The notes under the pieces: generated by a model | Told to the model about the DNA's origin: nothing | Databases searched by the model: none | Seen by the model: only the letters and a program-made list of their open reading frames with translations | Made by a program: the position numbers and the translations under genes | In this document: positions 15,801 to 56,713 of the stretch, piece by piece | How the letters are laid out: each line of letters begins with the position of its first letter | Position numbering within the stretch: the first letter of the stretch is position 1 | Assembly: GCA_016188605.1 (NCBI GenBank) | Contig: JACPHP010000012.1 | Span: forward strand, 149 to 64,148 | Length of the DNA stretch: 64,000 nucleotides | Origin: Candidatus Spechtbacteria bacterium | GTDB taxonomy: Bacteria; Patescibacteriota; Minisyncoccia; Spechtbacterales; JACPHP01 | Reading direction: 5' to 3'

Positions 15801-18800
15801 CTAATTCCCTAGCACATACATTAACCCGCCATTAGTGATTGCATAAACTAACCCGTCGCCGATTACCAGCGATAGCACCTTGCTATCAAGCTTGTATTGC
15901 CAAACGACCGTAAGCATGTCTGAATTGGCGGAATTGCCATTTCCATTGTTGTTCGTCGCGCTTTTTTGCAGCGCATAAATGTTTCCCGCTTCATCGCCAA
16001 CATACACTTTTCCGCTAGCGTCCGTGGAAACTAAGCTGCTGATATTGGCCGGCGCGGTAAACACAGCTTTGTTAGTCCCCTTGCTTGCGCCCTGCGTATT
16101 GAACAAATAAATTTTATTTTGCTGATATGACGCGCTGTATATTTCGCCGTTACCCGCGACAACTGGCGACTCCTTAAATGAAAGTGAGGGGCTCGCAATC
16201 ACGCTTTTCCATAAATACGCGCCGCCGTTTTGCGTGTCAAACGCGGCAACGCCTGTATTGATTTGGCTTGTTTGAAACTGCGCGTATAGTATGCCGCTAG
16301 CATCCAGACTTGGATCGCCAAGAATATATGTTATGCCGGTTGCGGGCGCGCTCTGCATATTGCGCGACCATAAAATAGCGCCGTCAGACAAAGATAGGAC
16401 TAGGAGCGTAAAATCATTGTTGGGATTTCTAACTATAACGTAAAGATTGTTGGCATCCAAAACGGGGGTACGAATTACACTAGCCGAAGATCCTGTAAAT
16501 CCGCTGATATTTAAAATACTTCCCCAATTGGGTACGGTTGTCCACAAAACAGTTCCGCCCGAGTCAAACGCCATACACTGGCGAAGCGTGCATGCGTACG
16601 CATTTCCTTGAGAATCTGTGATTGGCGAAGTCGCGTCGTGATTGCCGCCGCTTGTCGCCCACGTAATGCCCAACAAAACAGACGCAAGCAAAGAACCATC
16701 TGATGTTTGCAACACATAAAGCTTCCCTTGCGAGTTTGCAGTATTTGCGCCAATCGAAACAACGTACAATTTTTGGCTATCCGGAGAAAGCGCGGGCGCG
16801 CGCAGGTCGGGAGTTGAAATATCGTAATACCAACGCGCGTTACCATTAATATCGTATGAATATACTGAAGACTTACTCCCTACGGTAGTTGTAAGATATG
16901 AATTTCCCTCCGAATCAATCACGGGTTGAGAGATAGAAAAAGAGTATCCGGCAACTTGCATTTGTGATTTTATTTTTGCGTCACTGCTGGCAGACCAAGC
17001 AGGGCCATTTTTCGTGGACTCGTTTGTATGGCGCGCGTTAAAATATTTCATTGCCCAAATAGGCGCTCCGGAAAAATCCGCTTGCGCGGGCGTCGCGTCA
17101 GAATTTGTCGGCGTTGGTATGTCTAGCTGTGTAAAATCTTGCGCGTTGTTATCAGTGTCTTGATGCTGGTCACCGCGACTAATACTTTTATTTAGAGTTG
17201 GCGCTGCTACGGCTGTGTTTTCTTGCAGCGCGGAGGTTACGTCGCCCCATGCCACCGCATCAATGGGGGTTACCGCGCACGGAGTTTGTTTAGCGCATTC
17301 AGGGTCTTGTGAAAAAATCGCGATCGTTCCGCCCGTGTTTGCCAGCTGCGCGCTAGTGTAGGGCTGCCAGTCGGCGTTAGGGTTGTTGTTTGCTGTGTTG
17401 TATCCTTTGAAACCGATAAGATAGTAAGCGCCTGCGGAAATTAAAGCGGCGGAGGGGAATTGCTTGACGCGCCACGGATTGTCCCAGCTTGTTTTGCTGG
17501 TAGAATAGTACGCGAAATAATATCCGTCCAATGAGATATTCGCATCTGTTGGATTGTATAGCTCTACGAATTCAGAATCTCCTGTCTGTATTTCGTTGAT
17601 AACAATATGAAGCGGCAATGGCTGGAAAGAATCTTCGTCGGTTTCGCTGTCATCTTCGTCTAATTCGTCCGGTGATTGAGAAGAATTTCCGTCGTCTTCG
17701 TCTTCGTCTTCATCTTCATCTTCATCGACTTCATTTTCGTCTTCATCATCATCCGAATCTAAAGAGGTATCTGAATCTTCAACAACGGCCGCGTCATCAG
17801 CGGCCGTGTCATCTTCTTGAATCTCTTGAGTCTCTTGGGCAAGCGCCGCGTTTTGCTTGGGATTCGGAGTAATAGTAATAGAAAAGTCTTGCGCGTTATT
17901 ATTTGTATCAGCGTGGCTTGCGCTACGCGCGATACTTTGATTTATTTCCGGGGCGCCAGCCGCTGCCCCTTCAAAAAGGATAGTGTTTCCCCAGCCGACA
18001 GCGTCAATCATTCCTGCCTGCGCGTCTTGCGCGGATTTAGTTGATGGATCAAATGGAAAAACAGCCACGGTGCCTCCGCTATTTGCCAGCTGCGCGCTAG
18101 TATAGGGCTGCCAGTCGGCGTTGGGGTTGCCGCCGGTCGTGACATAATCCTTCAAGCCGATAAGATAATAATCTTGCCCCGATATACTTGCCCCGTCAGG
18201 AAATTGTTTTACGCGATATGGATCGTTCCACGCTGTTTTTGATGAAGAATAATAGGCAAAATAATGACCGGCGAGCAACATTGTTGCGTTGCTTGTATTG
18301 TAAAGCTCAATAAACTCCGCGTCGCCTGTTTGAATTTCATTTATAACAATCGTGGCGGGAGTGGCAGGCGCGGCAGGAGAATTTTGCTGTGTTTGGTTTT
18401 GTGTTTGCTGCGAGGTGTCGTTTTGCTGAGTGTCCTGCGCGGGCGATGAGCCCGCTGTCGGCGCTTCTTGTTCAAAAATATTTACTCCTCCGGGAGTCAT
18501 GGTTTTGGTCACGCGAAAGTCCTGATTGTTGCTGTTTGTATCCGCGCCGGATGGCCAGCGAATAATGCTCGCGGCAGTAAAAGAAACTGGCGCGGCCGAA
18601 CTTCCTTCAAATAATATCGCGTCGCCCCACCCCATAGCGTCAATGCGCGTGGAGCTACTTGTTTTAGGGTCGCCTTTCCAAAGCGCAAATGCGCCGGCGC
18701 TGTTGCCCAGGAGGTCGCTTGTGTAAACGCGCCAATTAAAATGTTCTGAGAAATCGCCAAATGCTATAATATAGTAGCCGCGCGCGGGAATTACGGCATC

Positions 18801-41208: not shown

Positions 41209-41227
41209 AATGAAATTTAATAAATCT

Positions 41228-41345
41228 CGGCCAGAGCAAGAAATACAACGTAGAGTTGCGTGCGTAAAGCACCGTGGGTGCCACGCACCTCTACGGTGGC
41301 AACCACGTTGCTTTACGCAAGAGAATGTATTTCTACGTTTAACAA
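41228..41345. other. Highly structured element of about 118 nt in the leader of the DUF1573 gene. It is a copy of the AGAAATACA-loop-TGTATTTCT element (also at 44335-44385) carrying an insertion of about 75 nt with nested helices.
   Basis: The shared flanks are GCCAGAGCAAGAAATACAAC ... AATGTATTTCTACGTTTAA. Within the insert, GCGTAAAGCA pairs with TGCTTTACGC, GTGCGT pairs with ACGCAC, and CGTGG pairs with CCACG. Confidence 0.3.
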
Positions 41346-41390
41346 AAATTACAACAAAATGTAATTTTACGCTAAACGCTAAGGCTGATC

Positions 41391-44014: not shown

Positions 44015-44300
44015 TTTATATAAGGTAACGCAGCCTGCGGGGCTACGCGATTTTGCCTTTATACAAATTGGTATAAGGTAGCCCAGCCACACAAACGTGT
44101 GCGGCTGGATGATTTTGCTTTTATACAAGGTAGCGCAACCCCGCCACGGTGGGGTTGCGCGATTTCGCTTAACGCAAATAGAATCAAGGGTAAAGTTGTT
44201 AACGCAGCGCTGCTGCGCTGCGCGATTTTGCCTTTATATAATACGGGTAATAACCCAACGTGTCCTACTTAACACGTTGGGTTATTACCCGTATATTAAA
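44015..44300. repeat. Tandem array of five hairpins with different stems (7 to 22 bp). Each is followed by the conserved tail GCGATTTTGCCTTTATA(C/T)AAGGTA.
   Basis: The units start near 44015, 44054, 44108, 44163 and 44226. Unit 5 has a perfect 22-bp stem (TACGGGTAATAACCCAACGTGT ... ACACGTTGGGTTATTACCCGTA). Confidence 0.6.
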
Positions 44301-44312
44301 TAAGAGCAAAAT

Positions 44313-44332
44313 TGGCTGCGGGACCTGGATTC
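44313..44332. repeat. 20-nt duplicate of the tRNA-Gln 3' end (TGGCTGCGGGACCTGGATTC), att-like.
   Basis: It is identical to 45902-45921 of the tRNA gene 1.57 kb away. It is directly followed by the GCCAGAGCAAGAAATACAAC element. Confidence 0.6.
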
Positions 44333-44573
44333 TCCGCCAGAGCAAGAAATACAACAAAATGTATTTCTACGTTTAAGCGGACTCGCCTTGGGCGAGGAAC
44401 CAAGATACCATAAAACCCTACGTATTTAGAACAAAGAAATTCTTCTTTGAGCTGGCTAGCTCGGTCTAGAACCTGGGCTTTGAGAGGGATTCTGGGGCTT
44501 TTTAGGGATGTCTTATCTACCCGTCTCGGTCAGGGTCATTATACTCGAAACTCTATAAATAATACTGATTTTG

Positions 44574-47057: not shown

Positions 47058-47172
47058 ATAATTATCTCAAATGTCAAATCGCAAATCTCAAATCAAAATC
47101 TTAAATATAAAATCTTCGCTAGTAATTTTGAGATTTGAGTTTCAGTTTTGCGATTTTAGATTTGATTTTTGA
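47058..47172. repeat. Heptad-repeat palindromic element (copy A; CAAATCT-type arms) between ftsE and ftsX. It is preceded by a 15-bp-stem hairpin at 47017-47050.
   Basis: Its core TTTTGAGATTTGAGTTTCAGTTTTGCGATTTTAGATTTGATTTTTGA is almost identical to 47933-47978. Confidence 0.6.
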
Positions 47173-47175
47173 AAT

Positions 47176-47856
47176 TTATATCTTATATTTCCCCTTCTTA
47201 ACATCCCTTGTTATTCTTCCATTCTCCAACGTAACCACCCGCCGTCCAAGCGCGTCAACAATTTCCTTGTCATGAGTTGCCAGAATAACCGATGTTCCAA
47301 GCTCGTTAATTTTTACCAATAATTTAATAATTTCCCAAGTATGAATGGGGTCAAGATTTCCCGTCGGCTCATCTGCTAAAATAATTTCCGGACGTTGCAC
47401 GAGCGCGCGAGCCAATGACACGCGTTGCTTTTCGCCTCCGGAAAGCTCCTGAGGAAAACGATTTTCCTTTCCCTGCAAATCAACTAACGCCAGCGCCTGC
47501 GGCACGTCTTCAAAAATTTCGGCATCACTCTTCCCCGCCGCTTCCATCGCAAATGCAATGTTTTCAAACACGGTTTTACTTGGCAGTAATTTAAACTCTT
47601 GGAACACTACTCCTATACGCCTGCGATACCCGGGAACCTCGCGTCCGCGCAACGAAAAAACATCAACACCCTTAAAAAAAACTCGCCCATTGGTGGGGTG
47701 TTCTTCGCGTAGCAGTATGCGGAGTAGGGTGGATTTACCCGCACCCGAACGTCCAACCAATGAAACAAATTCGCGGTCTTCTATGCGAAGCGTGACATTG
47801 TCCAAAGCAGGGTCTTCGTTGGGATAAATTTTACTGACTTCTTGAAATAGAACCAT
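47176..47856 (-). CDS. ftsE: Cell-division ATP-binding protein FtsE.
   Basis: Contains [26 protein letters not shown] and [12 protein letters not shown]. Confidence 0.9.
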
Positions 47857-47870
47857 GAGAATTGCTACTT

Positions 47871-47985
47871 AATCTCAAATCTTAAATGGCAAATCTTAAA
47901 TCTACATCTCAAATCTAAAATCTTTGTCCGTAGTTTTGAGATTTGAGTTTCAATTTTGCGATTTTAGATTTGATTTTTGAGATTT
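47871..47985. repeat. Heptad-repeat palindromic element (copy B) between prfB and ftsE.
   Basis: It is about 95% identical to copy A across the roughly 60-bp core. Confidence 0.6.
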
Positions 47986-48002
47986 AAGAATCATTAACTT
48001 CA

Positions 48003-49107: not shown

Positions 49108-49251
49108 GTCACTATATTATATCACGCTTACGCCTAATGAGCCAGGACCGAAGATCCCCCTTCGTCTCTCCTTCGCGTAAAGCTACGGGAGAGCAAAGCA
49201 AGGACTTCGGATGGGCGCGGTCGAATTCCGTACCTGCATTTATCCCATTAG

Positions 49252-49324
49252 AGCCGGAGGGGAGAATCGAACTCCCGACCTACACGTTACGAGTGTGTTG
49301 CTCTGCCAACTGAGCTACTCCGGC
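49252..49324 (-). tRNA. tRNA-Thr (anticodon CGT); CCA is not encoded.
   Basis: Hand fold: acceptor GCCGGAG/CTCCGGC, D-arm GCTC-AGTTGGCA-GAGC, anticodon loop CTCGTAA, T-arm GGGAG-TTCGATT-CTCCC. Confidence 0.75.
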
Positions 49325-49501
49325 TCTCCTTCGCTCCGATTAACATCGGGGCTACGGAAGAACTAGCAATTAGGAATATAAACTGCTTGCCCTTCCGAAG
49401 CTCTGAGCTTATAGCGAAGAGTGTAGGAGGGAGCTACTCCGGCTCTAACGAGACGAACGAATGTGCCTGCCTCCAACTGCTTTAGTATACCCGCCACAAA
49501 C

Positions 49502-51700
49502 TCATTGTAAAGCAAGAGGCAGCTGTACTGTAAATGTACTGCCTCTGCCCTCTTCGGATTCGACAATAATCTTTCCATTGAGCATAGTTGTTATTTTTTG
49601 AGCAATAAAAAGACCAAGACCAGATCCTTCGGTCTGAAATCGCACAGCATTGCTGGCTCGGAAAAATTTAGTAAAGATATATTTTTGGTCTCTCTTAGGA
49701 ATACCTATACCATCATCAGTAACGGAAATGAGAAGACTTTTTTTGCCTTCGATAACGGCAATTCTAATTTGTCCGTCATCTCCAGTGTATTTAATTGCGT
49801 TATCAATAATATTACGCAGTACCATTTTCATTTTTTTATAATCAGATTTTATAGTAAGCGGTAATTGTTTAGGAATATCAAGTATCAATTTTCTCTTGCC
49901 CAGCTGAACATCAATCTCCGTCTCCTGCATAATTTCTTTAATCAAAGTCGTGACGTCAAAAGATTTTAATTCATATACTATCTTGCCCTCCTCAATCCTG
50001 GATGCATCCAAGAGATCATTGATTATACCAATTAAACGATTTATTGTTTTTCGACCCATCTGAAGACGAGAACTTTGCGATTTGTTTAACCGTCCAAAGT
50101 CACCTGCAATAAACATTTCTAGCATCCATTTAATGCCGGAGAGAGGCGTGCGTAATTGATGGCTGGCAGTAGCTACAAAGTTACTCTTTAAGTGTTCAAT
50201 TTCTTTTTCTCTCGTCAGGTCATGTATAACTCGCATAGCGCCCACTCGTTCTTTACCTTCGCCAACTAGCGGAACTAGGATAATCTCAAAAACTCGTTCT
50301 TGAGGCGTGGCAACAGCTAGCTCTCGTTTCTCAAAATCTTCAAGGTTTACATTCTCTATTAACTGAATATTCTCAAAGAGATTGTTTCTTTTAACTTCAA
50401 GATCTTTCGCTTTTTTACCCACGATATCATTTTTCGACACCCATAGTAGTTCTTCCGCGCGATGATTGAAAGCAATAATCGTGCCTTCAAGATCATACGC
50501 AATCAGCCCGTCGTAGAGACTATTCAACATATAAGTCATCTTCTGTTTTTCAACAGCAATAATTTCATTGCTTCTAGTTATGGTCGCAAAAGATTTTTTT
50601 AAATTTGCGGACATGTTGTAGAAAGCAAAAGCCAGATCTTCTATTTCATCGTCGGTATGAATGGGAATCTTATAATCCAAATTCCCTTTTCCAAATTCAC
50701 TAGAAACCAGATGTAATCCCTCAATGGGCTGAACGATCTGCCTGGCTAAAATAAATGCGGCAATAACAGCAAAAAAAAGTATTGCTGCCAGGACAAGAAA
50801 AACAAACAGGGTAATCTCTCGTATCGCCGCTAGAGCGATAAAGGTCGGAATTTCAGCAATGACAAACCAGTTAGCATCAATAATCTCTGGCGATGCGTGA
50901 CCATAAAATGAAATTTGTATCGGCGCGCCAGCGCCCACAACCTCCTGATTTAGTTCGTTGCGATAAATAGCAACTGGAGAAATGTCATTTTTTTGCTTAA
51001 TTAAAGAAGATACTAAAGGAATGGAAGAAAAGTCTTTTTGTAGAAGAACTTGTGAAATATCAGGATGAGCAACAACGACTCCGCTTCGATCAACAATATA
51101 AGCCCTGCCCCCTTCTTCGACTATAGAAAGTTGATTGACCACTTCCTGCATGACCCTTGCATCAACTTTAACCAAAACAGCTCCTTGAAATACATTATGA
51201 ACATCAAATAGTCCCCGACCAATAGTAAAAAACAGCCTGTTCTTTTCCCAGAATAGCTGACTAATAAAATGGCTGCTTTCTTTCGCTGCTAAAAATTTTT
51301 CTTCGTCTAGATATTGCGCCAAGTCTCTTGGGGTAATGACAATCAGTCTATTGACTCGATTAGTCTCTTGGCCATTCGCATCCACTATGGTAATTTCGGA
51401 AAAATTATCATGCGAAAACAATAATCTCTCAAGAAAATTTTGCCTGAGTTCAAAATTTTTTGGTAAAAACGAATCAACATTATCAAAATTATCTAATGCA
51501 GAAAATTGCAGGCTAACAAATTCAGTAATTTCTTTGGTTACAAAAGAGGCGATGCGCCGTTCTTGGGAAATGGCATTTTCTTTCTGAATGTTTTGGAATT
51601 TCAGAATAGTCTGGAGCATAGTCAAAACAAAAGGTATTGAAGCAAAGCCTATCAGAACCACGATTAATTTTGTGCGTAATTTTATCTTAGGAGCAGCCAT
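49502..51700 (-). CDS. Sensor histidine kinase (N-terminal TM, extracytoplasmic sensor region, HAMP, PAS, HisKA, HATPase_c).
   Basis: The H-box is ATASHQLRTPLSGI and the G-box is DDGIGIPKRDQ...GSGLGL. The start was taken at the Met with SD AGGAG 8 nt upstream; the ORF track extends to a TTG at 51817. Confidence 0.85.
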   Translation of the reverse strand: MAAPKIKLRTKLIVVLIGFASIPFVLTMLQTILKFQNIQKENAISQERRIASFVTKEITEFVSLQFSALDNFDNVDSFLPKNFELRQNFLERLLFSHDNFSEITIVDANGQETNRVNRLIVITPRDLAQYLDEEKFLAAKESSHFISQLFWEKNRLFFTIGRGLFDVHNVFQGAVLVKVDARVMQEVVNQLSIVEEGGRAYIVDRSGVVVAHPDISQVLLQKDFSSIPLVSSLIKQKNDISPVAIYRNELNQEVVGAGAPIQISFYGHASPEIIDANWFVIAEIPTFIALAAIREITLFVFLVLAAILFFAVIAAFILARQIVQPIEGLHLVSSEFGKGNLDYKIPIHTDDEIEDLAFAFYNMSANLKKSFATITRSNEIIAVEKQKMTYMLNSLYDGLIAYDLEGTIIAFNHRAEELLWVSKNDIVGKKAKDLEVKRNNLFENIQLIENVNLEDFEKRELAVATPQERVFEIILVPLVGEGKERVGAMRVIHDLTREKEIEHLKSNFVATASHQLRTPLSGIKWMLEMFIAGDFGRLNKSQSSRLQMGRKTINRLIGIINDLLDASRIEEGKIVYELKSFDVTTLIKEIMQETEIDVQLGKRKLILDIPKQLPLTIKSDYKKMKMVLRNIIDNAIKYTGDDGQIRIAVIEGKKSLLISVTDDGIGIPKRDQKYIFTKFFRASNAVRFQTEGSGLGLFIAQKITTMLNGKIIVESEEGRGSTFTVQLPLALQ

Positions 51701-51867
51701 GAAAATTTTATTATCCAACAAGAGGGGAGAAAATAAATATATTGGTTCTTCCAAACTAGGGCAGATAAAAAATGGCACTGCGACAGTGGAGCGTAACCGA
51801 CCTCGGGGATCGCCCAAAGGGGCGATCCCCGAGGGGCAATCCCCAAAATTTTATACCCTTTACTTGT

Positions 51868-52926
51868 CTATTTTATAATAGAAATAGAAAGCATTGAATC
51901 TGGAAATTTAATTCCATCTTTCTGAGCCCTGTCCAAATAAATCATCAAAACATTTTTACTTGTAAATTCAAGGGGAATATCCGAAGGCTTAATTCCGTGA
52001 AAGATTTTATCCATCATTACCACGGCTTGCTTCCCAGCCTCGGTAAAATCGCCGCTGTAGCCAAAATGTCCGCCATTAGGCAAGTCCTCAAGAGGCGCTA
52101 CCATTGGAATTCCTAATCGACCGGCTAATTTTGACTCTGCTTCTTCTTGAGCTTCAAAATGATGTCCGGCAATATGATATACAGCATCAATATCGCCCGA
52201 TTTAATTTGTCCAGCAATCTCATACCAAGCTTTTTCGGCTTCCGGCGGAGAAACCGTTGTTTTATACTCTACAATCTCAAAGCCTAACCTTGGCGCCTGG
52301 GCTTTTAATTCTGCGTAAAACTCTTCTCCTACGGGAGGAACTATAAATCCTTCACCAAAAGTGCCAATTTTTTTGATGTCGGGATTAATTTTTTTAAGAA
52401 ATTCCAGTTGTTTTTGTATAACCTCAACCAAATTAAGGACAACACCGGTCGCATTATTTTCCGAGGATTTAAAAGATTCTGCAAGTCCATATTTTACAGG
52501 ATCATGAAAATTTACTAAAAATACAATTGGTATATCGCTATTTATCTCTTTTGTAGCCTTCACCGCGCTGATAGCCTGGAGTTCCAGCCCGGTGAAAATC
52601 AAATCCACCCCCTGCTCTACAAACCGTTTAGTCGCTTCTTCGGCTTCAACCAACATATCTGGCCCTGGAACAATTCGCGCTTCTTCAAACGTAACGTTGG
52701 TATACCCCATTTCCTTAAACCCTTCCTTTACACCTTCAACCGCCTCAATTTGCTGCCTTTGATACAACAGGCCTATTCGTTTTTCTTCCTTCGTTACCGA
52801 TGAAGTAATGGGTCCAAATAAGGGAACATTTTTAAATATTTGAAACAAACTAAAACCTATTAACCCGACCAGCACTACTATCGCTATAGTAAGAGCGGGG
52901 CTAGTTATTTTTGGAAATGCAATCAT
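51868..52926 (-). CDS. Membrane-anchored periplasmic-binding-protein (type I PBP/ABC substrate-binding-like) domain protein. It is the likely co-sensor for the adjacent kinase.
   Basis: It has an N-terminal TM and a roughly 320-aa alpha/beta binding-protein-like sequence. No ABC permease or ATPase gene is nearby. Confidence 0.55.
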   Translation of the reverse strand: MIAFPKITSPALTIAIVVLVGLIGFSLFQIFKNVPLFGPITSSVTKEEKRIGLLYQRQQIEAVEGVKEGFKEMGYTNVTFEEARIVPGPDMLVEAEEATKRFVEQGVDLIFTGLELQAISAVKATKEINSDIPIVFLVNFHDPVKYGLAESFKSSENNATGVVLNLVEVIQKQLEFLKKINPDIKKIGTFGEGFIVPPVGEEFYAELKAQAPRLGFEIVEYKTTVSPPEAEKAWYEIAGQIKSGDIDAVYHIAGHHFEAQEEAESKLAGRLGIPMVAPLEDLPNGGHFGYSGDFTEAGKQAVVMMDKIFHGIKPSDIPLEFTSKNVLMIYLDRAQKDGIKFPDSMLSISIIK

Positions 52927-53193
52927 AGATTTTTTGTTAATTATTAATGTATCATTAGTCTCGACTTTAATTTTACCTTAATTCGATTATATATGATTTG
53001 GTTGAATAAATTTAAAATATGAAATTCTGAGTTGAGATGCCCCCTTTGGTTGGATAATATGGACGCGAAGCCCACGTGATATTGGTAAAACTATCATTCA
53101 CCAAACTATATCCAACAAAGCCATTATATAATATCCATTATAATTACGGAATGTTTATAGATGGGCGCGTGTCGGTGTGGTATAATTTACTAT

Positions 53194-54843
53194 ATGAAAA
53201 AATTCGTTATTGGCCATTGGGTCGGGTTAGCTCTACTAACGATTATTCTAATTGGCGCATTCTTGCGCTTTTTTAATCTATCAACTCTTCCGCCGGGAAT
53301 TTACCCCGATGAAGCGCGCAACGGCATAGACGCGCTTCACGCCATGGCCACCGGCCAATATTCAGTTTTCTATCCGGCAAACAACGGCCGCGAGGGGTTG
53401 TACATCGACCTGCTGACAATTGTTTTCCGAATATTTGGAGTCAGTATTTTTTCTCTCAAATTAATTAGTGCGGCTATCGGCATGCTAACAATTTGGACAG
53501 TATATCTTCTAGCAAAAGAATTGCAAAGATTTATCAAAAGCGAAAAACCGATGTGGTACCAAGAGGCAATCTCTCTTGTTGCTTCGCTTTTTATTGCCAC
53601 AAGTTTCTGGCATATTAATTTTAGCCGTATTTCTTTTCGCGCAATCTTTGTTCCTTTCCTTCTCTCGCTTGCGACATATTACACATTGCGCATGCTGCGC
53701 CGCGGATCTCTCTTTGACACAATTGTTGCCGGCGCGCTTTGGGCGCTTGGCATGTATACATATATTGCATTTCGAGTAGCGCCTATCATTCCCGCATTTC
53801 TTATTGGCTCAACGTTGCTGGTTTCGCTAGCGCAAAATCGCGACAATAAAAATATCAAACGTTGGATAAAAATGATTGCCGCGTTTGCATTAAGTGGCAT
53901 CATAGTATTTCTGCCTCTCGCAATCTACTTCATCACAAACTCAGGCAGCTTTGCTTCTCGTTCAGCTGGAATTTCAGTATTTAGTGAACCTCAACCTATT
54001 CTTGCATTTCTGAAAAGTCTAGGCGCGCATCTACAAATGTTTTTCTATCAAGGCGATGGAAATTGGCGGCATAACATTTCTGGCCAAGCCCAGCTCTTGT
54101 TTCCCATCGCGCTTCTATTCCTTCTTGGAACATATGTTGTAATACACGACGCTTTTCATGGTTTAAGAACAAGACAATGGGAAAAAGCGATTGGAATGTT
54201 AGCGATTGGAATGTGGTTTGACGCGCTTCTTCTGCCCGCGATACTTACCATTGAGGGTATTCCTCATGCCCTTCGCTCAATCGGCGTAATCCCTGTTACA
54301 TACCTGATTGCTGCTATCGGCTTTGCGCATTTTCTTGGCTATCTACTCCGCCAAAATATTTCTTGGATTCGCTCTGGAGGATTTGCTCTTGCTATCGCCC
54401 TTCTTGTAGCTCTTCCACTTACTGCCTATAACCAATATTTCAATGTGTGGGGAAATAATCCTAATGTTCCTGGCGCATTCTCGCAATACTATACCCAAAT
54501 CGGATATTTCCTTAACGCGCTTCCGGACGATACGCCCAAAGTTGTGTTTGTAAATAGCGATGGCGTGCTTGTGCCGATTGAAAAATATCTTGCCGCACCG
54601 ACAAACAAAGATAATACAATTCCCATGTCATCGCAAACAACTCTATTTATACAGAATACAAAATCCGTGCATCCGCAAAATACAATCTACGCCACCGAAA
54701 AAGAACTTGAAAATTTTATTCCACAAAAAGGAAGCATCGTCATTCCGCTTGAACCAAATGATAAGGCAAAAACTTTTCTTAAAGAAAAGTTTCGTGGTAC
54801 TGGCCAACAGCCGGGCGGAATATGGTTCTACCAAATGCCATAA
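53194..54843 (+). CDS. GT-C fold glycosyltransferase (ArnT/PMT family 39/83-like).
   Basis: It is polytopic and has the motif PPGIYPDEARNG in the first periplasmic loop. Confidence 0.75.
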   Translation: MKKFVIGHWVGLALLTIILIGAFLRFFNLSTLPPGIYPDEARNGIDALHAMATGQYSVFYPANNGREGLYIDLLTIVFRIFGVSIFSLKLISAAIGMLTIWTVYLLAKELQRFIKSEKPMWYQEAISLVASLFIATSFWHINFSRISFRAIFVPFLLSLATYYTLRMLRRGSLFDTIVAGALWALGMYTYIAFRVAPIIPAFLIGSTLLVSLAQNRDNKNIKRWIKMIAAFALSGIIVFLPLAIYFITNSGSFASRSAGISVFSEPQPILAFLKSLGAHLQMFFYQGDGNWRHNISGQAQLLFPIALLFLLGTYVVIHDAFHGLRTRQWEKAIGMLAIGMWFDALLLPAILTIEGIPHALRSIGVIPVTYLIAAIGFAHFLGYLLRQNISWIRSGGFALAIALLVALPLTAYNQYFNVWGNNPNVPGAFSQYYTQIGYFLNALPDDTPKVVFVNSDGVLVPIEKYLAAPTNKDNTIPMSSQTTLFIQNTKSVHPQNTIYATEKELENFIPQKGSIVIPLEPNDKAKTFLKEKFRGTGQQPGGIWFYQMP

Positions 54844-54845
54844 CT

Positions 54846-55370
54846 TGGAGCGAGCGAGGAGAATCGAACTCCCGCCTCGACCTTGGGGACAAAGCCAAAT
54901 TATTTTGGCTTTGTCGGGCGCAAAAGCGCCCTGGGGCGGTGTGGCAGCATCAATTTTTTGTCGAGGCTCTGCCGAGAACTGTATTGTTGCTGTCCACACC
55001 GCTATACCTTGAGCGGGATACCAGAATCGAACTGGCGCTTCGACCTTGGGGACACTTTTGCGTATAGCGAAAGTGTCGGCTCCAAAAGGAGCCCGGGTAG
55101 TCATGGCAACCTCAATTTTTTGCTCGGAGTCCCCCTTTGGGGGACGGAGAAATTAAGTTGGTGTTGCCATGACGGTACCTTGGCGTTGAACAAACTTAGA
55201 GCGAGGTACGGGAATCGAACCCGCGTGTCAACCTTGGGGATAAAAGCCAAATGCTTTTGGCTTTTATCGGACGTAAAAAACGTCCTGGGTGGTCAAATGC
55301 CAACAATTTTTTGTTCGAGCCGAAGGCGAGTAATATAAGGCATTTGACGGTACATTGATGTTGAGTAGAC
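54846..55370. repeat. Three tandem structured repeats of about 175 nt each (at 54846, 55008 and 55196). Each comprises a tRNA-Gly 3' half (anticodon loop to acceptor 3' strand), a 9-bp-stem hairpin and a long-range 11-13-bp stem enclosing CAATTTTTTG.
   Basis: The 3' half of unit 1 is identical to the intact tRNA-Gly over 43 nt. Units 2 and 3 carry divergent T-arms and acceptor strands. No matching 5' halves were found. Confidence 0.6.
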
Positions 55371-55371
55371 T

Positions 55372-55445
55372 TGGAGCGAGCGAGGAGAATCGAACTCCCG
55401 CCTCGACCTTGGGAAGGTCACGTACTACCACTATACTACGCTCGC
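55372..55445 (-). tRNA. tRNA-Gly (anticodon CCC) with encoded CCA.
   Basis: Hand fold: GCGAGCG-TA-GTAT-AGTGGTA-GTAC-G-TGACC-TTCCCAA-GGTCG-AGGC-GGGAG-TTCGATT-CTCCT-CGCTCGC-T-CCA. A 17-nt duplicate of the D-arm region lies immediately 5' (55446-55463). Confidence 0.8.
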
Positions 55446-55476
55446 ATACTACCACTATACTAATCCCGCCTATTTT

Positions 55477-55779
55477 TTATCGATAAATCTCTCTTCTATG
55501 CGCCACTTCAATTAATTGAATTTCTTTGGTAGAAATAAATTGAAAAATTACTCGCCAATCTCGAGTAATTCTAAAAGAGTATAATCCCGAGAGTTTGCCT
55601 GTGAGATGTTTTGAGTGGAGCTTTGTATGAAAAGGATTCTCTACAAATATTTCCAATAGTTGCGCAAGTTTTTCTGTTGAGGCTTGGGCAATTTTTTCGC
55701 CGAAACAAGAAAATGACTTGCGCAGACAATGCGAATCATACGAAAGTATCGAGTTTCTCAAGAAATTCTTTTGCGTCAC
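55477..55779 (-). CDS. RelE/ParE-superfamily type II toxin.
   Basis: Contains KLSGLYSFRITRDWRVIFQF...IQLIEVAHRREIY. Confidence 0.55.
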   Translation of the reverse strand: MTQKNFLRNSILSYDSHCLRKSFSCFGEKIAQASTEKLAQLLEIFVENPFHTKLHSKHLTGKLSGLYSFRITRDWRVIFQFISTKEIQLIEVAHRREIYR

Positions 55780-55975
55780 TAAAGGTATGTTTAGGTTTTT
55801 CTCGCGATGCCCTCAGAATACGTTGCACGAATTCAGGACGGTAATCCCCCTCTTTGTCTTTTCCAGCAATACCTATAATAAAAGACTTGAGAAGCTTTAC
55901 TTCCTGTTTTATACTTGCAGATGAAATACGCGAAGGATTACTCATTAATCGTATTGTATAGCGGACATGGGGCAT
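55736..55975 (-). CDS. Putative cognate antitoxin (79 aa), overlapping the toxin start.
   Basis: Its position and size fit. Sequence similarity is weak. Confidence 0.35.
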   Translation of the reverse strand: MPHVRYTIRLMSNPSRISSASIKQEVKLLKSFIIGIAGKDKEGDYRPEFVQRILRASREKPKHTFSDAKEFLEKLDTFV

Positions 55976-56000
55976 GTCAATGGCAAATTCTACTCACCTT

Positions 56001-56432
56001 TCACTGAAAAACAAACTTCCACCACTCGCCCGCTCGGCGCTTTAAGGCATCTTCCGTCGTCTCATCTTGCATGTAATCATCAGCCGCGGCAGCTGGCTTC
56101 TGCATCTGCTGTTGCGCAGTATTGTCTTTCTGCTCGCTTATATTATTCTCTCCTCCTGGCACCACAATCACCACCTGCTCGCCGGGCTTTTGCACATTCA
56201 ACCTTCTGCGTACTTCGAGCTCCAAAACATCACTCTGATTAAATGATTGAATCATCGCGGCAAGATTGTCATTGTCTTTTTGCAAATTAGATACTTCCTC
56301 ACGCGCTTTATTAATATCCTGTTGCAACTGATATCGTTGATATAACTCTTTGCCAAAAGCTCCTGCAAACCAAGCCATAACCAAAAGCAAAGCGGTGAGC
56401 AGTGCGCGAGAGATTGTAGTTTTAGTCATCAT
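56001..56432 (-). CDS. Septum formation initiator (FtsB/DivIC-like).
   Basis: It has an N-terminal TM, a coiled coil and LELEVRRRLNVQKPGEQVVIV. Confidence 0.6.
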   Translation of the reverse strand: MMTKTTISRALLTALLLVMAWFAGAFGKELYQRYQLQQDINKAREEVSNLQKDNDNLAAMIQSFNQSDVLELEVRRRLNVQKPGEQVVIVVPGGENNISEQKDNTAQQQMQKPAAAADDYMQDETTEDALKRRAGEWWKFVFQ

Positions 56433-56677
56433 ACTAAAAAATGACGAGAATAAAAGTTTTTGATAGTGATATGAGTATATACTGAAAAATTTGATGACAC
56501 GAATATAAAAATGTGCTAAAGTCTATAAGTATGAACGTCACTGGCCACAAATTCCGTACTATAGCCAGGGTGGTGTGGATTTCTATAGTAATCCTTGTCA
56601 CCTTTAGCATGGTTGGATATCTTTTGATACCGCTATTCTAATAGTAGCGAAAACACACTAAAAATCAATCATCCTTA

Positions 56678-56705
56678 ACTAAATAACCTCGCATATGCGA
56701 GGTTA
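56678..56705. terminator. Terminator after lepA (AAATAACCTCGCATATGCGAGGTTATTT).
   Basis: Seen directly. Confidence 0.7.
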
Positions 56706-56713
56706 TTTAGTTT

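Follow-up and report, generated by a model that had tools for sequence, protein, structure and literature searches.

Three gene-free structured units with tRNA-Gly 3′ halves downstream of a Spechtbacteria tRNA-Gly(CCC) gene: a covarying module and possible scars of tRNA-targeted integration

Downstream of the intact tRNA-Gly(CCC) gene of a Candidatus Spechtbacteria bacterium lies an array of three tandem units of about 175 bp, each of which consists of a structured module of about 120 nt, here called U, that abuts a tRNA-Gly 3′ half starting exactly at anticodon base C34. The array is part of a 64,000-nucleotide stretch of contig JACPHP010000012.1 (the window, whose coordinates are used throughout). 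Our data indicate that U is a genuine family under selection, and this structured module is lineage-restricted and previously undescribed. We assign a probability of roughly 45% to the reading that the array represents scars of tRNA-targeted integration, that is, a stack of three lineage-specific, gene-free integrative units of about 175 bp that would have been mobilised in trans. Serial integration of small non-autonomous elements had been proposed in an earlier reading made from the sequence only (the sequence-only reading). It is the best interpretation available and is partly supported: the perfect repeat that bounds the array, the heterologous tRNA halves, the empty sites in distant relatives, and the differences between genomes in the presence and orientation of U speak for it, whereas the integrase and the autonomous relatives that such elements call for did not turn up near the locus or in any collection.

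The intact gene (type A, with CCA encoded) is located at 55372–55445 on the minus strand. It was called by ARAGORN with the label Gly-ccc, and its score against Rfam RF00005 was 63.9 bits, compared with a gathering score of 29. Since the gene is on the minus strand, the repeats at 54846–55371 are downstream of it, and the order on that strand is antitoxin, RelE/ParE-like toxin, a 24-nt tRNA 5′ fragment, tRNA-Gly, the three units, and the stop codon of a convergent PMT_2 gene. The 3′ part of the tRNA occurs in four in-register copies with start-to-start spacings of 175, 188 and 163 nt; the whole array measures 526 nt, with a unit size of about 175 bp (163–188 nt). These results bear out the complete tRNA-Gly(CCC) followed by three tandem units of about 175 nt that the sequence-only reading had described. 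No credible open reading frame (ORF) was present in the 526-nt insert, and a coding repeat was ruled out because the unit lengths (163, 188 and 175 nt) are not multiples of 3 and shift the reading frame.

All three tRNA halves begin at the same base, C34, directly after the last hairpin (H3) of the module. In unit 1, the most distal one, the half (type A with CCA, 54846–54887, minus strand) belongs to a 45-nt segment that repeats the 3′ end of the gene perfectly (54843–54887 = 55369–55413), CCA and 3 more bases included, and that forms the distal arm of this direct repeat; the half ends 2 nt from the stop codon of the PMT_2 gene. The halves of unit 2 (type B, 55012–55050, minus strand) and unit 3 (type C, 55200–55238, minus strand, running from C34 to the discriminator and followed by CTA rather than CCA) have a T-stem and an acceptor strand unlike those of the gene, as had also been stated earlier. 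The two inner copies of the tRNA 3′ part show 78% identity (22% difference), in contrast to the identical outer repeats. By inspection, the type B and type C halves each retain a fully paired T-stem, G49.U65 wobble included, as in real tRNAs, while their acceptor strands would pair at just 4/7 and 5/7 positions with the 5′ strand of this host's tRNA-Gly; this combination indicates that the inner halves were shaped in other tRNA-Gly genes. The type C half is identical over 39 of 39 nt to the 3′ half of a working tRNA-Gly(CCC) of a related Spechtbacterium (contig L016, from a species here called R). Transfer of the unit 3 module (U3) together with its type C half from an R-like genome was considered and rejected, as U3 is 61–67% identical to the copies in R and 69% identical to the unit 1 module (U1). 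None of the three halves gave a tRNA match in the Rfam search even at E<=1, and none received an ARAGORN call of its own.

Module U starts with (C)AAGGTACC and ends with H3. It is built from a helix P1 of 10–15 bp, which encloses a small hairpin and the invariant CAAAAAATTG, and from two hairpins that a short CC-rich spacer separates from P1: H2, with 6 bp and the loop TTTT(T), and H3, with 11–13 bp and one mismatch in unit 2. The long-range helix around an invariant motif had been recognised in the sequence-only reading; the single hairpin that it placed before each half is in fact two, H2 and H3. On the minus strand, U3 occupies 55239–55356 (P1 55292–55301/55339–55348, H2, and H3 55239–55268) behind a 15-nt linker at 55357–55371. 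The unit 2 module (U2), which has a larger inner hairpin, lies at 55051–55181 behind a linker at 55182–55199, and U1, at 54888–55010, is joined directly to the end of the type B half (H3 54888–54915, H2 54916–54931, CAAAAAATTG 54951–54960, P1 54936–54949/54988–55002). The three modules were delimited by their inverted repeats. The z-scores of folding against shuffled controls ranged from −5.4 to −7.1 per unit (U3 −5.4, U2 −7.1, U1 −7.0) and reached −12 for the whole 526 nt. The motif CAAAAAATTG occurs four times in the window, compared with 0.9 occurrences expected, and three of the four are within the array.

Further copies of U were found in two contigs from different samples, L015 and L016, which overlap at 99.3% identity and jointly give the locus in species R. 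To the window, R is 70% identical in LepA and 65% in the toxin. A covariance model (R1) was built solely from U3 and the inverted copy in L016, with U1, U2 and the L015 copy left out. It recovered U1 with 51.5 bits (E ~7e-12), the L015 copy with 47.6 bits, and U2 with 36.9 bits (E ~7e-8), the E-values being rough owing to a shortened calibration. Beyond the U copies, the best score in the 153 kb searched was a 9.7-bit fragment with E=1.6. Although the five copies are just 38–69% identical to one another, 89% of the cells in their alignment form standard pairs and 24 of 29 pairs have changed on both sides, values reached by 0 of 500 shuffles; it should be borne in mind that the alignment was fitted to the model structure. 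Sliding the helix partners by 1–3 columns lowered the pairing to 34–41%. Covariation across genomes, on which the sequence-only reading had staked its claim, is therefore seen: the two copies in R keep all three helices with different sequences.

In terms of the type of pairing, G.U accounts for 2 of the 139 paired cells of U, one in H3 of U2 and one in P1 of the L016 copy, and the two favour opposite strands, one each. Functional RNAs seldom have so few wobble pairs, and the pattern fits a structure that has to form in DNA or on either strand. From the nearly pure Watson-Crick pairing, it is most likely that the hairpins of U are read as folded nucleic acid by recombination machinery. In the copies of the window (54922–54925, 54952–54957 and the equivalent positions), L015 and L016, the loop of H2 consists without exception of T4-5, and the internal loop of P1 without exception carries A6. 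These complementary loops could form a loop-loop contact; both are invariant, which places them outside the reach of covariation.

A 24-nt fragment of a tRNA-Gly 5′ end (GCGGGATTAGTATAGTGGTAGTAT; acceptor 5′ strand and D-arm; 55446–55469, minus strand) directly adjoins the intact gene at its position 1. As a tandem copy it matches the first 24 nt of that gene at 83%, and it is of type B: its GCGGGAT pairs 7/7 with the acceptor strand ATCCCGC of unit 2, compared with 5/7 for the 3′ strand of the intact gene itself. The earlier statement that no 5′ halves exist is contradicted by this fragment (55469–55446) and by a 5′ remnant in R, which suggests that at least some events brought a whole tRNA. 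The D-arm of the fragment contains a −10-like TATAGT about 9 nt upstream of tRNA position 1, which follows TCGATA after an 18-nt spacer (55454–55483, minus strand) and is placed to drive tRNA-Gly. Such a promoter-like element could be the reason for the retention of the fragment.

The comparison with species R showed that U occupies different positions there. The order in R is LepA, U, a hairpin with a terminator-like T-run, DivIC, antitoxin, toxin, GCGGGG, an inverted U, a 29-nt type A-like tRNA 5′ remnant, a hairpin, the intact tRNA-Gly(CCC), a degenerate type B-like 3′ remnant, a 147-aa ORF, and the convergent PMT_2 gene. Thus, U is found in the LepA-DivIC spacer and, inverted, in the toxin-tRNA spacer, and the window is without U at either site. 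The three tRNA-Gly types A, B and C recur at both loci, with a different type intact in each, and the type B-like 3′ remnant downstream of the tRNA in L016 carries a compensatory T-stem change. The units had been thought to be built on tRNA halves; the copies in L015 and L016, which have no recognisable tRNA half, argue otherwise. In L015 (2001–2055), U is followed by CCTCGCTGCCA, which corresponds to the last 7 nt of a type C acceptor strand plus the discriminator, and then by GCCA, so that this copy may be a U-half unit from which most of the half was deleted. The hairpin with the T-run, 14 nt downstream of U in L015, resembles an intrinsic terminator by eye; a terminator scan did not list it.

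In three Spechtbacterales contigs with LepA at 62% identity (L017, L018 and L019), DivIC is followed within 0–17 nt by tRNA-Gly(CCC), and in L017 and L019 tRNA-Thr(CGT) comes 34–56 nt after tRNA-Gly, with neither U nor the toxin-antitoxin pair. These relatives with an unoccupied site are distant, and the closer relative R (70%) is occupied differently. In the window, the interval of about 6 kb between tRNA-Gly and tRNA-Thr (49325–55371) holds the array, PMT_2, an ABC substrate-binding protein gene and a histidine kinase gene. PMT_2 adjoins tRNA-Thr in L010 and L013, and a synteny walk from PMT_2 led to a 72% relative without a tRNA beside this gene. The PMT_2 protein of the window is 100% identical to a protein of an NCBI Spechtbacteria MAG. 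A contig with LepA 90% identical (L014) is rearranged: a LAGLIDADG_3 protein gene (544–1383) overlaps the lepA start, and the gene after lepA is a purple-acid-phosphatase-like ORF, not DivIC.

According to the integration reading that we favour, each unit would consist of a tRNA-Gly(CCC) 3′ half, a linker of 0–17 nt and the palindromic module U of about 120 nt, and would enter the anticodon loop of tRNA-Gly(CCC) via conservative site-specific recombination. The crossover would fall inside the CCCAAGG(T) segment, where each half begins, and with every new arrival the unit already in place and the 3′ half that was displaced would move farther downstream. Since the units encode nothing, the recombinase is proposed to be supplied in trans. 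As the halves derive from different host tRNA alleles (A, B and C), the units would have moved between Spechtbacteria lineages. If the ends of U were joined (H3 followed by CAAGGTACC), the result would be C.CAAGGT, which is near the anticodon-loop/stem segment CCCAAGGT where the halves start; the joined ends may therefore represent an attP-like core on a small circle. The perfect 45-nt direct repeat brackets the array in the manner of attL/attR sites. In a stronger version of this reading, the units are complete mobile elements and smaller than any integrative element described so far. Each would be a gene-free DNA circle in which the joining of the ends restores the CCCAAGGT core, and the covarying hairpins would form a folded attachment site, comparable to integron attC or the CTX phage site, that is read by a host-encoded recombinase. 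Every insertion would exchange the 3′ half, or all, of the essential tRNA-Gly(CCC), so that its alleles are shuffled between Spechtbacteria lineages. We regard this version as rather unlikely.

Several observations weigh against integration of such units. The locus has no integrase or recombinase gene, and a Pfam scan of 49 of the 50 window ORFs of at least 90 aa (all but the 1,694-aa ORF at 15801–20885) gave none either; no autonomous relative or further copy was found with five patterns in GTDB genomes, JGI metagenomes and IMG/VR. The unit-side junction TTTGTC/CCC (slash at the junction) does not repeat the anticodon-stem 3′ strand GGTCG in inverted form, and classical core-type integrase sites are not evident. 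The hybrid tRNAs at intermediate steps would carry 2–3 acceptor mismatches, and the 24-nt type B 5′ fragment, like the A-like one in R, is not predicted if only 3′ halves arrive. A circle of 175 bp is very small for recombination. The family is known from two genomes only, so that its mobility rests on one comparison, and the copies in R, as described above, are without a recognisable half. Given the 5′ fragments and the acceptor mismatches in the hybrids, in some events a complete tRNA may have arrived and taken the place of a disrupted resident gene.

The searches behind these negative results can be specified as follows. With a pattern of CAAAAAATTG...CCCCAAGGTYGA, GTDB genomes gave 6 matches, all of which were in coding sequence and were rejected as chance. 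A pattern for the C33-bearing half and a tRNA-independent pattern for U gave 0 matches in JGI metagenomes and IMG/VR, as did the exact A, B and C halves and a U3-type pattern in IMG/VR, and blastn against phages and plasmids matched nothing but the tRNA itself. Integrase-bearing relatives at tRNA-Gly, for which the sequence-only reading had suggested looking, were not encountered. Among the scanned window ORFs, the one transposase-like gene was a gene similar to REP-associated tyrosine transposases (RAYT; 21560–22303), 33 kb from the array.

Of the other explanations, replacement of whole tRNAs ranks first, although it is unlikely. Elements that share a short anticodon-loop core would disrupt the resident tRNA-Gly and bring a complete tRNA-Gly(CCC) with a linker and U, and the locus would be a set of nested disrupted shells, the current gene having 5′ remnants on its upstream side and 3′ remnants on its downstream side. 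The precedent is the tRNA-dependent lysogeny of actinobacteriophages, in which integration at a core of about 10 bp disrupts the resident tRNA and an element-borne tRNA of the same isotype replaces it (PMC10865867). Non-functional hybrid tRNAs would be avoided, and the bracketing of the working type A gene by a type B 5′ fragment and a type B 3′ half, with 7/7 mutual pairing, would fit this process. An analogous pattern is seen in R (L016), where a GCGGG start and the 29-nt A-like 5′ remnant lie upstream, and the B-like 3′ remnant downstream, of the type C gene. In contrast to whole phages with a tyrosine integrase, the array is without phage genes, and no integrase was found at the locus or among the scanned window ORFs. 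The three postulated events left one short 5′ fragment, which ends at nt 24 in the D-arm and not at position 33; the other expected 5′ remnants are missing and their loss by deletion must be assumed. The 3′ side looks alike under both models, so that the distinction rests on two small fragments. It is less likely still that U represents one or more small structured RNAs, co-transcribed with or near the tRNA, whose diverged copies are kept for an RNA function and for which the halves serve as processing or stabilising signals. The strong covariation, the conserved loops (H2 UUUU(U) and P1 AAAAAA) that could pair together, the lack of a terminator between the tRNA and the array, which makes read-through transcription likely, and the terminator-like hairpin behind U in L015, as in a small RNA gene, would all suit such a role. 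However, the rare G.U pairs on opposite strands are unusual for a functional RNA, and U is inverted relative to the tRNA in R. An Rfam search at E<=1 over 53500–57000 and over L015 and L016 found tRNA as the one family, which also excludes known group I introns and known ribozymes, and weak matches elsewhere to RsmY, psRNA14, rsmX and miRNA families were dismissed as plain hairpins. No promoter or terminator consensus is conserved in U, and no terminator was found on either strand; a −35/−10-like pattern seen by eye on the strand opposite the tRNA was discarded, since it had no backing from the scan and its spacing does not hold in U2. A tRNA-like fold of U plus half was likewise discarded, because the acceptor and anticodon 3′ strands are without a partner inside the unit and nothing tRNA-like can fold. 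The suggestion in the sequence-only reading of a family of tRNA-derived structured RNAs is not supported, as U has neither a tRNA nor another Rfam match and also occurs without halves.

The array may also be pictured as a recombination graveyard without a dedicated element, in which foreign tRNA-Gly loci were taken up and underwent homology-facilitated illegitimate recombination or unequal crossing-over at short identities such as CCAAGGT, and in which U would be no more than a sequence conserved beside tRNA-Gly in this clade. We consider this quite improbable. The same three tRNA types are present as fragments, differently arranged, in both genomes, CCAAGGT-like strings occur at the 5′ end of U, in the anticodon region and at the tRNA 3′ end (CCAAGT), and the tRNA-Thr gene 6 kb away also has a 13-nt 5′ duplicate, which means that fragment duplication is not unique to the tRNA-Gly site. 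Illegitimate events would nevertheless hardly produce three junctions at the exact same nucleotide and regular units of 163–188 nt, they do not explain why the outer repeats are identical and the inner ones 22% different, and U also lies in the LepA-DivIC spacer, away from any tRNA. The perfect 45-nt repeat raises the possibility of an assembly ambiguity, which is the least probable of these explanations: the graph would also fit a plain tRNA-Gly beside PMT_2 if the 526 bp formed a molecule of their own, circular or amplified, and it would fit a chimera joined from strain variants. The source is a metagenome-assembled genome. In Logan assemblies, contigs obtained independently for this organism break off at a graph branch within the distal half, as a 45-nt repeat would lead one to expect; the identical PMT_2 gene is carried by samples such as SRR12113428 and SRR12113383. 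On the other hand, identical runs between the A, B and C halves do not exceed about 13 nt, which rules out k-mer artefacts as the origin of the inner joins (U3-C-U2-B-U1), and R, assembled independently twice (99.3% identity), has the same fragment classes. The three units would stay real even if they formed a circle.

In comparison with known systems, the array is most similar to serial integration at one tRNA gene, which has been documented for large elements with partial tRNAs between them (bioRxiv 10.1101/2020.12.28.424599; PMC9897764). Shared with tycheposons, prophages, and the accretion of integrative and conjugative elements (ICE) and their cis-mobilisable derivatives (CIME) are the direct repeats of the tRNA 3′ end, the placement of newer arrivals next to the gene and of older ones outward, the heterologous partial tRNAs, and the empty site in related genomes. 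Whereas the known elements are kilobases long and carry an integrase, the units described here are unusual in that they measure about 175 bp, are gene-free, and carry a covarying three-helix module under selection for structure. Integron attC sites, REP/REPIN elements with RAYT, and IS200/IS605 ends resemble U in their variable sequences with hairpins kept by near-pure Watson-Crick compensation, and in being non-coding, intergenic and present in either orientation. Unlike integrons, the array has no intI/attI and no GTTRRRY boxes, and U has no conserved target tetranucleotide. Mobilisation of a REP/REPIN by the RAYT-like gene was rejected: five diverged copies of U (38–69% identical) stand against the many near-identical copies of REPs, and the gene is flanked by different palindromes (GGATATCCCGGCTATCC) that are unrelated to U.

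Group I introns are frequent in the tRNAs of Patescibacteria (PMC13011429), and interrupted tRNA genes, which include archaeal split tRNAs, share with the array the break in the anticodon loop and, in part, a host phylum known for tRNA introns. The array differs from intron-bearing tRNAs in that no 5′ exon lies beside the units, the 24-nt fragment stops at the D-arm, and the intact gene is uninterrupted. There was no Intron_gpI match at E<=1, U measures about 120 nt, and upstream of each U lies a tRNA 3′ end plus linker; a group I intron was rejected on these grounds, in agreement with the earlier conclusion that the units are not intron-containing tRNAs. An archaeal-type split tRNA was also rejected, given that no matching type A or type C 5′ halves occur elsewhere in the window, the units hold no acceptor complements, and the genome is bacterial, as are the flanking genes LepA, DivIC and MurJ. 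For a miniature inverted-repeat transposable element, the P1 arms would be terminal and alike; in U they are internal and differ in sequence between copies, and the L015 and L016 copies are without a flanking duplication. A CAAGGT target-site duplication around U was dismissed because AAGGT is the 5′ end of U itself and is present in L015 away from any tRNA. The repeats of type III toxin-antitoxin RNAs were dismissed as well, since the toxin is RelE/ParE-like with a protein antitoxin and the repeats are diverged, about 175 nt long, beyond the tRNA and downstream of the toxin.

The toxin-antitoxin pair adjoins tRNA-Gly on its upstream (5′) side and is outside the array. It comprises a RelE/ParE-like toxin (55477–55779) and a DUF2683-like antitoxin (55736–55975), together spanning 55477–55975 on the minus strand, and was assigned from Pfam and PHROG matches (NCBI name RelE/StbE). 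The sequence-only reading was correct that the pair is adjacent; it is a separate insertion, which R shares, at the 5′ flank of the tRNA. The cassette is present at L015 2714–2965 and L016 211–686 and is common to the window and R between DivIC and tRNA-Gly; it also occurs at L024 1311–1786 in another gene context, and L024 ends 7 nt past the toxin stop. Between MurJ and LepA, a 345-aa ORF (58739–59776, minus strand) weakly matched an endolysin in PHROG (E 1e-7) and no Pfam family of note.

Other repeats were observed in the window. The RAYT-like gene encodes a Y1 (IS200-type) transposase of 247 aa, with a Pfam score of 26.3 bits and REP_Tyr_transpos as the best NCBIfam match, below cutoff; around it (21520–22420), one copy of the palindrome GGATATCCCGGCTATCC lies inside the ORF and one just downstream, with a related long palindrome upstream. 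The 13-nt exact duplicate of the 5′ end of tRNA-Thr (GCCGGAGTAGCTC; 49431–49443, minus strand) is about 107 nt upstream of tRNA-Thr(CGT) (49251–49324), and hairpin motifs of the form CCGTAGC...GCGAAGGAGAG occur on both sides of this gene. Two AT-rich long palindromes of 115 nt (47064–47178 and 47872–47986), which are 87% identical, flank an ftsE-like ABC gene; they sit among the FtsX, FtsE and release factor genes as intergenic hairpin repeats unrelated to U. Short intergenic direct-repeat families of 25–34 nt in 2–3 copies, some exactly 3000 nt apart, were found at 41225–41376, 44035–44241 and 44331–44376.

Integration into tRNA genes is textbook biology, but the elements known to do so extend over kilobases and encode an integrase of their own. 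The mobile elements of bacteria of the candidate phyla radiation (CPR) are poorly known. Arrays of half-tRNAs such as this one can mislead tRNA annotation and break assemblies at the repeat. If the integration reading is true, the lower size limit of integrative elements would be set by gene-free units of about 175 bp, each with a selected three-helix module and a tRNA half of its own, and these units would point to a trans-acting recombinase in CPR bacteria. The locus also indicates that lineages with tiny genomes exchange alleles of a tRNA that they have in a single copy.

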